Source of the DNA: Gemmatimonas sp.
GTDB lineage: Bacteria; Gemmatimonadota; Gemmatimonadetes; Gemmatimonadales; Gemmatimonadaceae
DNA: 64,000 nucleotides
Assembly (NCBI GenBank): GCA_031414535.1
Contig: JANNVQ010000010.1
Location: 18,749 to 82,748, forward strand
Direction of reading: 5' to 3'
Below, piece by piece: positions 6,634 to 24,088 of the stretch. Positions within the stretch are counted from its first letter, which is position 1. Each line of letters begins with the position of its first letter. Below the pieces are notes generated by a model. It was not told the DNA's origin and ran no database searches. It was given only the letters and a program-made list of their open reading frames with translations. A program made the translations under genes and the position numbers.

Positions 6634-6736
6634 TGAAAATCAGCCGCACGAGTGCATCGCGTTCCGCAAGCGCTTGACAAAGACTTAGACGCCAACGAAG
6701 TTCTCTCCGTTCGCTCGTGAGAGCAGACAAGACATA

Positions 6737-6905
6737 AGCGCTGGTCACTTGGCCCCAAAGCCAAGTGCGAACAGGGAACCCGGTGTGATTCCGGGGCGGC
6801 CCCGCCGCTGTGAGGGAGGACGACGGAGCATCCGGCCACTGCGCTGCAAAGCGTGGGAAGGCGGCTCCCGAGGACGATTCCCGAGCCAGAAGACCTGCCA
6901 ACGCT
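6737..6905 (+). ncRNA. Cobalamin (B12) riboswitch
   Basis: AGGGAA-CCCGGTG-..-TTCCGGG, CCCGCCGCTGT, GCCACTG..GGGAAGG, B12 box GAGCCAGAAGACCTGCC; closing helix AGCGCTGG/CCAACGCT. Confidence 0.93.
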
Positions 6906-7106
6906 ACGGAGTCCGAGCGCACCCTCGAGGGAGGGATCGCCGGGGCGAGTCGTGGGCGTCTTTGGGCGTCCATTGGCCACGTGGCTCCTTGCGTTCATTC
7001 GCGGGGAGCCTTCGTTGTCTCCGGCGCCATCGGTTCACACTGATGCGGGCCGGAGGTCTTTGCCTCGGGGGTGCGTGCTGTTCAGTCCCCCACCGGAGCA
7101 ATGCGC

Positions 7107-19594: not shown

Positions 19595-20491
19595 ATGATG
19601 ATTAGTCACTCGTCCAGCTTCGCTCGTCTTGCCGTGCGTGCACTCGCCTCGGCGCTCGTTGCCGCGCTTTCAGTCGCTACGCCGCTCGCGGCGCAGAACG
19701 CGCCGCAGGCCGCGCCGAGCCCCACCCGCAGCGGTCCGATTACCGAAGTGTTGGTGCTCGATCGCCGCTCGCAGCCCATTCCTTTCGCGCTCGTGAGCGT
19801 CGGGAACTCACCGCCTCGCGTGGCCGACGCATTGGGCGTGGCGCAGTTGCCGGTTCCGTTGGACGCCGACTCGGCGGACATCGTGGTGCGCCGCATCGGC
19901 TACCACCCATTTGGCCAATTCGCCAAGCTGAGCGAAGACGGCAAGCAGTACGTGGCCTACCTCAATGATCTGCCACGAGCCCTCAACCCGACGACCGTCA
20001 CGGCGCGACGCGACACGCCGCTGGCTCGCCGCGGCTTCTACGATCGCATGGAACGCGTGGCCCGCGGAGCCACTGTCGCCCGCTTCATCACGCCTGAGGA
20101 ACTGGAGATCCGAAATCCGATCACTGTGTCGGCCATGCTCGCGGGTGAGCCCTACATCCGCATCCAGCGTAGCGGTGCCAAGTCCATTCTCACGGGCCGG
20201 CAGCCTGGCTGCCCGGTAGCGGTGATCCTCGACGGACAGCGTATGACGGGCATGGTGGAGGAGCTGTACACGATTGATGGGCAGGACGAGGTGCGTCGCC
20301 TCGGTGGCGGGACCGCGGGTACCCAGCGCTTTCTGGCAAGCCGGACGAGCGTGGATGAACTCATCGGCGCGTTGTCCGTATCGGCAATGGAGATCTACGC
20401 CTCGGCGGCCGGTGCACCCTCTGACATGCAACGCACGGCAGGCAGCAGCGCCTGCGCCATTTTGGTGATTTGGAGCGGCGGCCGGCAGTAA
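19595..20491 (+). CDS. Secreted protein with carboxypeptidase-regulatory-like and TonB-plug-like domains
   Basis: Signal peptide; VRRIGY; GFYDR; C..LDG; MEIY..C.I.VIW. Confidence 0.65.
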   Translation: MMISHSSSFARLAVRALASALVAALSVATPLAAQNAPQAAPSPTRSGPITEVLVLDRRSQPIPFALVSVGNSPPRVADALGVAQLPVPLDADSADIVVRRIGYHPFGQFAKLSEDGKQYVAYLNDLPRALNPTTVTARRDTPLARRGFYDRMERVARGATVARFITPEELEIRNPITVSAMLAGEPYIRIQRSGAKSILTGRQPGCPVAVILDGQRMTGMVEELYTIDGQDEVRRLGGGTAGTQRFLASRTSVDELIGALSVSAMEIYASAAGAPSDMQRTAGSSACAILVIWSGGRQ

Positions 20492-20571
20492 GAGTTTTGT
20501 GTCACAAATCTGCGACTTTCACGATTTCCCTTGCGCGGAATCACGTGACCCCACAATCGTAGTATCGTCTC

Positions 20572-20765
20572 ACTCACACAGGACCGTGGTTCGGATTCAC
20601 TAACCACACGGTCCGCGACGGGAGGCCTGTGACCGTAACGTACGGACAGCCGTTCCAGCCGCAGTGGCCACGGTCGCTCACCGCGACCGTGAGCTGGAGT
20701 CTCCCCCATTCTGAACGCACCCCGCCCGGGCCCGATGGCCTGGCGCGGGGTGTCGTCATTTCCGG
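20572..20765 (+). ncRNA. Candidate structured RNA / 5' leader of the HNH gene
   Basis: Six stems read by eye (see findings); TAGTAT -10-like box at 20560-20565. Confidence 0.55.
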
Positions 20766-20774
20766 CGAGGTACG

Positions 20775-21179
20775 ATGTCACATAGGGGCGTCCACCACAT
20801 CGCTCTCGCCCGCGCCACGCGCGGGCTATCCCGCCACGCTCGCCGAGTGCTGCACCAGCAGCACAAGCGTCAGGTCAAGCGTGAGACCTTCAGGGATTGC
20901 GGACGCCGTTGTGTCTACTGCGCCACCGGACTTGGATTGGAGAATGCCACTCTGGATCACGTGATTCCGCTCTCACGCGGCGGCACGCACCAGCCGGGCA
21001 ACCTCGTGGCGGCATGTCAGACCTGCAATCAGCGCAAAGGCTCGCTGCTCCCCACAGAATTCTTCGCCCGGTATCCGGCGGCCGGGCAGAACTTCATGCG
21101 GTATGCGCGGGCGGTGCATCGGCAGCTGAAGCGGGGCGCTCGACGGGCGGTGTCTTTGCACTACGCGCAGGCGGCGTAA
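20775..21179 (+). CDS. HNH endonuclease (McrA-like, Zn-binding)
   Basis: CVYC..TLDHVIP.SRGG..NLVAACQTCNQRK; GAGG upstream. Confidence 0.92.
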   Translation: MSHRGVHHIALARATRGLSRHARRVLHQQHKRQVKRETFRDCGRRCVYCATGLGLENATLDHVIPLSRGGTHQPGNLVAACQTCNQRKGSLLPTEFFARYPAAGQNFMRYARAVHRQLKRGARRAVSLHYAQAA

Positions 21180-21186
21180 GCTGACT

Positions 21187-21252
21187 GGACGGATGACGGA
21201 TGACGGATGCTACTGCGCATTGGCCGTAGCGTCCGTCATCCGTCTTCCGTCC
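21187..21252. repeat. GACGGAW-heptamer palindromic element, full copy
   Basis: 27-bp arms with 2 mismatches and a 12-nt loop, between convergent genes. Confidence 0.95.
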
Positions 21253-21257
21253 ATAAT

Positions 21258-22170: not shown

Positions 22171-22239
22171 TGGACGGATGACGGATGACGGATGCTACTG
22201 CACTGCTGCCGTTGGCATCCGTCATCCGTCTTCCGTCCA
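22171..22239. repeat. GACGGAW-heptamer palindromic element, full copy
   Basis: TGGACGGATGACGGATGACGGATGCTA ... TGGCATCCGTCATCCGTCTTCCGTCCA. Confidence 0.95.
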
Positions 22240-22246
22240 GTTCCTA

Positions 22247-24088
22247 CTAGTAGTCCACTGGCCGCAAATAACTCTCTCCGATGGCGGCCCCAGAGAGCAT
22301 CGCCACAGTCGGCAGCTTGCGCTTCCAGTGCGTGGAGTCCAAGCGCTTGGTCACCAGCTTGAGCGCTTCCGCGTCCACGCCCTTCGCGATCAACTCTTCG
22401 CGGCTCCAGCCGTGGAGCAGCCAGTTGAGTATCTCATCGGCCACGGCGTAGCTCACACCGAAATCCGCTTCGTCCGTCTGGCCCGCCACGAGATCGGCGC
22501 TCGCGGGCTTCTTCACAATCTCAGCCGGCACGCCGAGGTAGCTGGCCAACTGCCAGACCTGCGTCTTGAACAGATCGCCAATCGCGTTCACTGGCGGTGA
22601 ATCGTCGGCGTGCCACGTGAAGTAGCCCAGCAAGCGCTCGCTCTTGTTGCCCGTACCCAGCGGCAGCGCACGATACTTCGCGGAGAGATCGAACAGCGAA
22701 ATCATCCGCACGCGCGCCATCACGTTGCCGCGCCGAGCGGCATCGGCCTCGGGTTCGTTGGCGAGGTAGCCATCCACGGCGGCAGAGATGTCTAGCGTGC
22801 GCTGCTCGATGCCGAGCTGGTCCATGAGGAGCTGGGCGTGGGCAAGTGAATCAGGGCTCGACGTGCGATACGGCAAGCGCACACCAATCACGTTCTCCTT
22901 GCCGAGCGCGCGTGCCGCGAGGGCCGCGACCACGGCGGAATCCACACCACCCGAGAGACCGACCACGGCCTTCGTAAAGCCGCGCCGCTGAAACTCATCG
23001 CGCAAGAAGGCAACGAGCCACTGCTCCACGAGCCGCGCGTCAATGTCCAGCGACGGAGGTGTGCCGTGACCTTGCGTGCCCGCTTGAACCACAGGCAGCG
23101 CGGTGATCGCCGCGAGAGGAACGCTGCGGGGGACAACAGGACGGAGGACGGATGACGGAAGCACGGGGCTTGTTGCATCCGTCATCCGTCTTCCGTCCAG
23201 TCCAAGCACCCTTTCCAGCTCCCCACGCAAGAACGGAAGCGCAGACCGCAAATCACTCAAAAGAGGAAGCTCCGCTCTCACCCGGCTGATATCTCCAAGC
23301 TCGATGCTCGTCGTGACCAGCGCTTCCTCAAAGATCGGAGCGCGCACGCGCACATCACCGCGCGGGCCCACGACCATCGAGCCGCCCTGGAACATGCGCC
23401 CGCCTTCGCTACCCACGAGATTCGCGAGCACGCAGTACACGCCGTGCTCGTCGGCGATGTCGCGCACGAGACGCTCCCAGCGGCCCACCGAGCCTGGTTG
23501 CGAGCCATCCTCGCGCGGATTGATGCCACGGGCCGGCGCCGCCGCCACCACGCACACGACCTGCGCGCCATCAAGCGCGGCAATCGTACCGGTGAGCGAG
23601 TGCCAAGCATCTTCGCAGATGAGAATCGCCGCGCGGCCCCAGCTCGTATCAAAAGCCTGTACGCCGTAACCACGCTCCACGAAGCGCTCTTCGTCAAACA
23701 GCGAATACGTGGGCAGGAAGTTCTTGCGATGCAGGTGCAGCACGCGCGCCGCCTTGCCGCCGCCGAACGCGATGCAGGCCGCCGAGTTGTGCAGCGTGCC
23801 GTTCTCCGCCTGCTCGTAGAAGCCGAGGATCACGTCCAGCGCGGGAAGCGCCGGTGCCAGCGAGGCCAGGCGCGCATCCAATTCCGCGGCGAGCCGCTCG
23901 GCGCTCAACGAAAGCTCCCGCACCCCGCCTTCCACGAAGTAGCCCGAGGTCACCGTCTCGGCGAACACCACGAGTTGGGGCTGCGGCTCCAACGCCGCCG
24001 ACTGCGCCACCAAGGCCGCGATGCGGTCAAGGTTGGCGCTGAGGGCGGCTTTCTGGGGGCGGAACTGAACTAAGGCGAGGGTCAGCAC
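22247..24088 (-). CDS. nadE: Glutamine-dependent NAD+ synthetase (nitrilase domain + synthetase domain)
   Basis: E-K-C triad (FAE, HRK, ICED); GLSGGVDS, GNVMARVRM, GTGNKSE, DLFKTQV; GTG start at 24088. Confidence 0.92.
   Translation of the reverse strand: MLTLALVQFRPQKAALSANLDRIAALVAQSAALEPQPQLVVFAETVTSGYFVEGGVRELSLSAERLAAELDARLASLAPALPALDVILGFYEQAENGTLHNSAACIAFGGGKAARVLHLHRKNFLPTYSLFDEERFVERGYGVQAFDTSWGRAAILICEDAWHSLTGTIAALDGAQVVCVVAAAPARGINPREDGSQPGSVGRWERLVRDIADEHGVYCVLANLVGSEGGRMFQGGSMVVGPRGDVRVRAPIFEEALVTTSIELGDISRVRAELPLLSDLRSALPFLRGELERVLGLDGRRMTDATSPVLPSSVLRPVVPRSVPLAAITALPVVQAGTQGHGTPPSLDIDARLVEQWLVAFLRDEFQRRGFTKAVVGLSGGVDSAVVAALAARALGKENVIGVRLPYRTSSPDSLAHAQLLMDQLGIEQRTLDISAAVDGYLANEPEADAARRGNVMARVRMISLFDLSAKYRALPLGTGNKSERLLGYFTWHADDSPPVNAIGDLFKTQVWQLASYLGVPAEIVKKPASADLVAGQTDEADFGVSYAVADEILNWLLHGWSREELIAKGVDAEALKLVTKRLDSTHWKRKLPTVAMLSGAAIGESYLRPVDY
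23139..23198. repeat. GACGGAW-heptamer palindromic element inside nadE, in frame
   Basis: 24-nt arms + 12-nt loop = 60 nt in the interdomain linker. Confidence 0.92.

Follow-up and report, generated by a model that had tools for sequence, protein, structure and literature searches.

A leader reading frame that runs through a terminator-like hairpin precedes an HNH nuclease gene in Gemmatimonadaceae and may act as a pyrBI-type attenuator

We found that a small HNH endonuclease gene of the Gemmatimonadaceae is preceded by a leader with its own ribosome-binding site and reading frame, and that this frame stays open through a terminator-like hairpin. We consider it fairly probable that the leader of the HNH mRNA is a pyrBI-type attenuator that is overridden by a coupled ribosome. 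The locus lies in a 64,000-nucleotide stretch of a Gemmatimonas sp. contig (hereafter, the window), in which an original prediction had pointed out a long, largely base-paired gap before the HNH gene and read it as either a minimal HNH ribonucleoprotein or an unrecognized riboswitch or attenuator restraining a nuclease. The gap is indeed 283 nt long. Comparison of homologous loci indicates that what is shared is a ribosome site and start codon, a terminator-like hairpin with a reading frame that stays open across it, and tight linkage to the HNH gene.

The HNH gene (20775..21179, + strand) encodes 134 amino acids, is single copy and belongs to an ortholog group specific to Gemmatimonadaceae. 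Its product belongs to HNH_5 (PF14279, E 2.8e-15) and matched only HNH families. Judged by its residues, it has the DH...N...N active site and the four zinc cysteines of an HNH (His-Me finger) nuclease, and C46, C49, D61, H62, N76, C81, C84 and N85 were unchanged in 47 of 47 aligned homologs. The earlier claim of an intact HNH/Zn core agrees with these 47 homologs, and domain searches of the window's protein bore out the claim that it lacks RuvC; a PLMP region was likewise not found in it. The closest solved structure is the Gme HNH nickase Gmet_0936 (PDB 4h9d; profile E 1.1e-14), which was the top match in both sequence and fold and, like the window's protein, is a small stand-alone Zn-ribbon HNH. 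The predicted structure of the window's protein (pLDDT 83.8) matched 4h9d in Foldseek with E 2.1e-4 and 31% identity; it differs in adding basic N- and C-terminal helices beyond the matched region, and its overall charge is strongly positive (24 Arg/Lys vs 5 Asp/Glu). Gme HNH is described as a weak nickase with a preference for AP-site DNA (PMC3765158). The Shine-Dalgarno sequence of the HNH gene, GAGG (20767..20770, + strand), was unchanged in 30 of 30 same-genus loci.

Named relatives come from Gemmatimonadaceae. Orthologs were present in 31 of 37 genomes of the window's own genus (E < 1e-60), in 64 of 93 family genomes compared with 0 of 307 genomes from other families (1e-22). At a looser threshold (1e-17), 105 of 141 genomes of the family carried one. 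A covariance model of the leader matched 67 of the 141 family genomes, once per genome, and 66 of the 67 matches lay immediately 5' of an HNH gene on the same strand (the remaining one was at a contig end). The model had no match in the 36 family genomes without the HNH gene, nor in 38 genomes that carry it. Genera mostly cohere on a rough HNH tree (75 rows), as would be expected if the gene resides on the chromosome and does not belong to a mobile element. Frequent neighbors, in a survey that scanned 53 of 94 neighbor open reading frames, were a HIT hydrolase upstream (in many genera) and, convergent downstream, either AraC-Ogt or NAD synthase.

Some loci depart from this arrangement. The leader is absent from genus g31 (L083, L084 and L262), in which the upstream HIT reading frame reaches nearly to HNH, as if HIT read-through had taken the leader's place. 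Genus g42 (L086, L088, L258 and L261) has another conserved leader, with its own Shine-Dalgarno sequence and ATG and without the strong hairpin, and its HNH proteins start with a histidine run. No comparable leader was seen by eye before two HNH paralogs in the window's own genome or before the distant homologs L173 and L174. A second, leaderless HNH copy (L091, on G145:C8, and protein P0068) carries a degenerate N-terminal HNH-like repeat before the intact one.

In the window, the leader reading frame (20629..20964, + strand) comprises 111 codons from a GTG start, lies in the +1 frame relative to HNH, passes through the hairpin P6 at codons 30-42 and stops 187 nt within HNH. Its Shine-Dalgarno sequence, GGAGG (20621..20625, + strand), also forms the 5' strand of helix P2, and GGAG was found in 46 of 46 diverse loci. 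Among same-genus loci, the frame was open in 30 of 30, all 30 stop 187 nt into HNH in the +1 frame, and the spacing from leader start to HNH start was 146, 149 or 152 nt, which preserves the frame. For a wider comparison, 171 loci with an ortholog were reduced to 137 non-redundant loci, of which 127 were scored (4 were too short, 5 lacked a start and 1 lacked a hairpin by rule; 16 of the 127 starts were set by hand). Start codons were ATG in 82, GTG in 43 and TTG in 2, at a fixed place behind GGAG. The leader frame was open to beyond 10 nt past the stem end in 125 of 127 loci, compared with 83 and 75 for the other two frames, and it was fully open in 18 of 19 labeled genera, whereas the other frames averaged 0.71. 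Apart from L067, the nearest stops in this set fell 8, 12 and 14 nt past the stem. A second set of 55 more regions was scored with a fixed rule blind to stops; after losses (2 without an HNH motif, 3 duplicates, 7 without a hairpin and 3 without a start), the leader frame was open in 37 of 40 loci, compared with 26 for each of the other two frames. Of the 26 genera in this set, 23 were fully open. By hand check, two loci dropped from the first set (L089 and L169) were also open through the hairpin. A stop precedes the hairpin in L067, L217, L223 and L244, the hairpin is present with no start by rule in L229, L234 and L240, and L083, L084, L086 and L088 have no such leader.

The chance of a stop-free leader in shuffled sequences is 0.54, i.e., about half, and related loci are not independent, so the weight of this result rests on its spread over genera. 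Genus labels served as the units of independence because single-linkage clustering was too coarse. The unpublished genome G201 (L054) is included in the first-set counts and in those on family distribution, folding, the tree, the covariance model and CGA; since L058 comes from the same genus, no conclusion hangs on G201 alone.

The leader frame relates to HNH in three layouts, which are interspersed on the HNH tree: it overlaps HNH, it stops at or just before the HNH start, or it is fused in frame. Counted by frame relative to HNH, 104 loci are +1, 12 are 0 and 11 are +2. The hairpin lies inside the HNH coding sequence proper in at least 11 loci. What the layouts have in common is that no stop precedes the end of the hairpin, and the three natural forms of a leader that occurs family-wide before a conserved nuclease thereby isolate its essential rule. 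They also correct annotation: it is easy to overlook the leader frame or, where the two are fused, the actual start of the nuclease. In one database protein (P0083, 177 aa) the leader frame is joined to the HNH core although its genus normally has the overlap layout; this may be a natural deletion or indel, or an assembly error.

Where the leader overlaps HNH, its stop falls on codons that are otherwise rare. At L53/L55 of the HNH protein, the +1-frame stop is made by CTA, TTA or GTA before G in 30 of 31 loci, compared with 3% genome-wide, and where residue 64 is Val it is GTA in 3 of 3 loci, compared with 6% genome-wide. Such rare-codon stops occupy at least five distinct sites, in loci that are related, and suggest that the +1 leader frame is genuinely read. 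Two other uses of the overlap were considered and rejected. A programmed frameshift from leader to HNH was set aside on three grounds (no slippery site was seen, HNH keeps its own Shine-Dalgarno sequence and ATG, and the frame relation varies), and re-initiation at a V63 GTGA overlap is not general, as other genera stop at CTA-G sites.

Leader peptides are unrelated between genera, vary several-fold in length and had no Pfam match, and the frame showed no clear three-base periodicity (entropy 0.54/0.60/0.63). It could thus be asked whether a small gene decayed here, leaving the frame as a neutral relic and the hairpin as its leaky terminator, a reading that unconserved amino acids and the many leaders expected to be stop-free by chance would fit. 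We consider it highly improbable, because the Shine-Dalgarno sequence, start and open frame are kept in ~36 genera and the peptide is not, the hairpin lies within the frame rather than after it, in-frame rare CGA codons and rare-codon stops indicate selection, and no locus showed a longer conserved form.

The original prediction had drawn a multi-stem fold across this region, and its helices were all correctly placed: P1 at 20581-20614, P2 at 20620-26/20699-705, P3 at 20627-49, P4 at 20654-59/20693-98, P5 at 20669-91 and P6 at 20717-53, the last followed by CGTCATTT. Folding of 20560-20780 gave -105.2 kcal/mol (z -4.12), a value that 0 of 200 shuffles reached. The minimum free energy structure of 20560-20780 departs from P2 and P4, and 20572-20762 folded by itself gives P1-P6 as drawn. 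GACCGT does occur three times (20582, 20631 and 20685) and ACGGTC twice (20608 and 20670), as had been pointed out; the mutually exclusive folds suggested on that basis did not stand, as the repeats are unconserved. Conservation of the fold, which the prediction made a test, was found within the genus and was largely lost outside it. Across 30 same-genus loci, paired cells made up 98% of P2, 99% of outer P6, 85% of P5, 79-83% of P3, 70% of P1 and 62% of P4, and 15 of 53 pairs differ on both sides, compared with a shuffled mean of 9.8 (1 of 500 shuffles was as high, a comparison that kinship inflates). Across 46 loci from many genera, the consensus retains only 14 pairs, with P6 and, weakly, P5. 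The only letters that never vary in these 46 loci are GGAG in the Shine-Dalgarno sequence, TG in the start codon, the C/G stem of P6 and two T of the tail behind it. P1 (20581..20614, + strand) is a 5' hairpin of variable length and sequence in which 5 of 7 pairs differ on both sides; a hairpin of -8 kcal/mol or lower occupies its position in 121 of 127 loci, a raw count with no shuffled baseline. P3, P4 and P5 (20627..20698, + strand) lie within the leader reading frame, whose start codon is in P3; P5 covaries, and P3 and P4 are lineage-limited.

This pattern bears on both readings of the original prediction. The attenuator part of its second reading comes close to the evidence, in the form of a translated leader. 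Its ligand-binding part does not: a multi-stem junction with some covariation in the window's genus is what a riboswitch would offer, and against it the invariant positions are the Shine-Dalgarno sequence, start and stem, there is no conserved unpaired core and no antiterminator is predicted. Rfam gave no match at the locus (at gathering level or with E up to 10) or in 20 homologous loci. A ligand-binding riboswitch is therefore exceedingly improbable. In the first reading, the basic HNH protein would bind a 180-nt terminated RNA as a guide or scaffold; a variant considered with it is that the RNA serves as a feedback site. The stable fold, the strict gene linkage and a very basic protein with distant likeness to the Cas9d/IscB HNH domain speak for it, and the locus does resemble HEARO/IscB-omegaRNA in that a structured RNA precedes the gene of an Arg-rich, Zn-binding HNH protein. 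Those systems, however, carry RuvC, PLMP and a structurally conserved guide RNA (PMC9755519), and none of these was found at the HNH locus. The IscB model scored 42.4 bits on the HNH protein (cut-off 175), HEARO was not matched in Rfam, the central fold is lost across genera, a variable guide segment is absent, and the gene is single copy with genera mostly cohering on its tree. As fused loci moreover place the hairpin within the HNH coding sequence, we judge this ribonucleoprotein to be very unlikely.

What P2 may do in an attenuator is suggested by its position. Its 3' strand (20699..20705, + strand) is an anti-Shine-Dalgarno sequence that is predicted to shut the leader's ribosome site. Predicted pairing of the Shine-Dalgarno sequence with downstream RNA was 0.91 in the window's genus, compared with 0.52 in shuffles, and was at least 0.6 in 12 of 19 genera and at most 0.4 in 7. 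Among genera whose Shine-Dalgarno sequence is hidden by P2, the partner often lies 73 nt past the start. In the window, the site is predicted to be 0.93 paired already by 20660, ahead of anti-Shine-Dalgarno synthesis, so the time open to ribosome loading may be shorter than P2 implies.

P6 (20717..20762, + strand) resembles a terminator, being a hairpin whose U tail is short and interrupted. In the window's genus, its outer stem was almost always paired. In 37 loci across genera, inner P6 stems were wholly different in sequence yet still paired, and several genera have clear U runs. At least 4 T of 12 lie behind the stem in 113 of 127 loci, a count in which T content was part of the hairpin score. 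In the window, P6 has a weak U tail and was not called by a strict terminator scan; similarly interrupted, weak tails follow the strongest gene-end hairpins in this genome (260 gene ends examined). The 35 nt 5' of the hairpin contain 43% C and 27% G and no U tract (37 loci). Rho is present in the genome, and together with this C-rich stretch it may assist termination. Two Rho-like genes were found there (G000:C58:2406-3647 and G000:C24:27920-28987), one above the family cut-off and the other strong but below it. RNA libraries were also searched (23 runs, all small shares). Contigs of four libraries extend over upstream non-leader DNA and thus mark neither transcript start nor end, and a single 346-nt RNA contig (depth 3.6) that reaches across the hairpin into HNH is evidence neither way.

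A ribosome footprint of 30 nt, placed at codon 1, 6 or 9 during folding, left the hairpin at a probability of at least 0.98 in 37 of 37 loci. It was lost only in two short leaders, in which the footprint reaches the hairpin itself. No antiterminator helix was predicted in the 37 loci. An attenuator of the trp/his type was therefore rejected, as no mutually exclusive antiterminator is predicted upon ribosome stalling. In pyrBI, a closely coupled ribosome prevents the terminator hairpin from forming and an antiterminator is unnecessary (PMC5021804, PMC4824070).

The hairpin could instead act after transcription, if P6 blocked translation or were processed by an RNase and leader ribosomes switched HNH on by unwinding or re-initiation. 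The weak U tail of the window, the abutting stop/start layouts of several genera and a small extra stem over the start of the HNH Shine-Dalgarno sequence in the window's genus are in keeping with this, and the arfA stem serves as both terminator and RNase III site (PMC10107115). Even so, pairing between the HNH Shine-Dalgarno sequence and coding sequence did not exceed that in synonymous shuffles (0.73 vs 0.68 in the window's genus), fused loci have no second start to unblock, and T-rich tails are retained after the stem, with two T invariant. We thus regard post-transcriptional control as unlikely and favor the attenuator.

The start of the leader frame is rich in one codon. In genus-weighted counts over 124 loci from 36 genera, CGA made up 11.3% of in-frame codons 2 to 13, compared with 2.4% and 4.8% in the other two frames, an enrichment that was spotted post hoc, with both locus sets already seen. 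CGA was higher in frame in 28 genera and lower in 7, and ranked first among the 64 codons; without codon 6, the values were 8.9% compared with 2.6% and 5.0%. Other Arg codons were not enriched in codons 2-13, and as background CGA accounts for 0.6% of the codons of long genes, with 1.2% measured at the starts of 108 genes. The window's genus shows no CGA enrichment, 29 of its 34 loci having GGA as codon 6, and the leader in the window has no CGA 5' of the hairpin. The enrichment could also be a nucleotide-level motif. With tRNA-Arg ACG and a TadA-type deaminase, CGA is decoded by inosine wobble. In the window's own genome, tRNA-Arg(UCG) was not found among the 41 tRNAs detected, tRNA-Arg ACG is present, and a strong deaminase match is compatible with TadA. 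CGA decoding is reported to be slow in Salmonella (PMC4046918).

Taken together, we propose the following mechanism. Transcription would stop at P6 by default, alone or assisted by Rho. The leader frame would be translated, and a ribosome on codons 30-42, close behind the polymerase, would block folding of P6. By re-closing the leader Shine-Dalgarno sequence in most genera, P2 is predicted to restrict loading to an early ribosome, and rare CGA codons near the start would slow that ribosome, making termination the default. Slow early codons and closure of the ribosome site would together keep basal read-through low. CGA decoding or initiation that is fast compared with transcription would raise read-through, as would slowing of the polymerase, and the terminated RNA would be a non-stop message. 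The likely purpose is to hold a potentially harmful DNA nickase at a low level. Our best guess for the signal is the balance of translation capacity against the speed of transcription, with decoding through tRNA-Arg(ICG) tuning it. We put forward more tentatively, as something possible but rather doubtful, that the leader is a family-wide gauge of ribosome-polymerase coupling that works through inosine-tRNA CGA wobble, without an antiterminator or a role for the peptide, and licenses a chromosomal nickase, its sensor frame being free to overlap, abut or be fused to the nuclease.

In B. subtilis, brfA is subject to the arfA-type control of a non-stop mRNA. In a similar arrangement here, the non-stop RNA would have a function of its own, with the truncated peptide as the product or the fate of the RNA reporting on ribosome rescue. 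In 125 of 127 loci, an mRNA terminated at P6 would lack a stop codon, and the window's genome encodes tmRNA and a third RF-1-family gene (ArfB-sized). E. coli arfA likewise carries a stem-loop in its reading frame that gives a stop-less transcript (PMC10107115). There, however, the truncated protein is a conserved product, whereas the HNH leader peptide is unconserved between genera, several-fold variable in length and without a Pfam match, and the nuclease lies downstream, separate or fused. P2 would moreover restrict repeated translation, and rescue after termination could hardly control a downstream gene. An arfA/brfA-like function is therefore quite improbable.

As judged from sequence features, the HNH leader most likely works like the attenuator of E. 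coli pyrBI (pyrL), and we file it apart from the pyrBI members because its termination is putative and no pause site was identified. The two share a terminator, putative in the HNH leader, within a leader frame of similar length (135 bp in pyrBI and 125 nt from start to stem end here). They differ in that the HNH leader controls a nuclease rather than pyrimidine synthesis, has no visible U-rich pause tract (pyrBI pauses at UTP-sensitive U tracts), has a CGA-rich start and the Shine-Dalgarno/anti-Shine-Dalgarno helix P2, and has a reading frame that ends behind the terminator, often deep in or fused to the regulated gene. Terminators early in a reading frame are reported to be poorly repressed unless the polymerase pauses (PMC4824070). 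A likeness in another high-GC bacterium is M. tuberculosis, in which premature termination coincides with translated uORFs, some of which overlap the main gene (bioRxiv 10.1101/2022.06.01.494293); there, termination is mostly Rho-dependent and linked to no conserved hairpin, whereas the HNH leader has one strong conserved hairpin.

Our literature search, which covered few subscription papers, returned no description of the HNH leader element. To our knowledge, few natural attenuators rest solely on a ribosome traversing the terminator, and the known ones concern nucleotide synthesis. If the proposed mechanism is true, transcription-translation coupling serves regulation in Gemmatimonadota, the leader would let the role of CGA decoding as a signal be tested cleanly, and it would hint at the conditions under which this HNH family acts.

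Upstream of the leader, several elements may direct its transcription. TTGCGC (20531..20536, + strand) is conserved 5' of the leader in most genera read (TTGACG in one genus) and is likely a -35 element. A sigma-70 consensus scan gave no site, and the -10 is degenerate. The TAGTAT box named in the original prediction is present at 20560-65 and, being unconserved in homologous loci, does not stand as a -10 box. A GTGAC-N16/17-CGTC motif (20545..20569, + strand) has both half-sites unchanged in 30 of 30 same-genus loci, takes a GTTAC variant in several other genera and is missing from others; a loose form of it occurs 30 times in the genome. It may be an alternative-sigma promoter or an operator, and we take it to resemble ECF-type promoters. 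Further 5', an imperfect palindrome (20502..20515, no strand assigned) is shared by most of the 30 same-genus loci, though some lack it. Its strict pattern occurs twice in the genome, and it is a possible regulator site.

The gap between HNH and the convergent AraC-Ogt gene holds a REP-like inverted repeat (21186..21253, no strand assigned; 31-nt arms, 90% complementary), which is likely the final terminator of the HNH transcript. Such repeats of GACGGAT units occur in three copies (21187-21253, 22172-22242 and 23135-23200), the third of which falls within the NAD synthase reading frame as annotated from its longest start. Inside the NAD synthase coding sequence, ARAGORN called an 87-nt tRNA-Arg(ACG) (22926-23012, - strand), a call that is probably false because a normal-sized tRNA-Arg(ACG) exists elsewhere in the genome. 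Directly upstream of the HNH locus, 19595-20491 (+ strand) encodes a 298-aa secreted-looking protein with no Pfam match, found 5' of HNH in the closest relatives only. Elsewhere in the window, 6725-6916 (+ strand) is a cobalamin riboswitch (Rfam RF00174, 124 bits).
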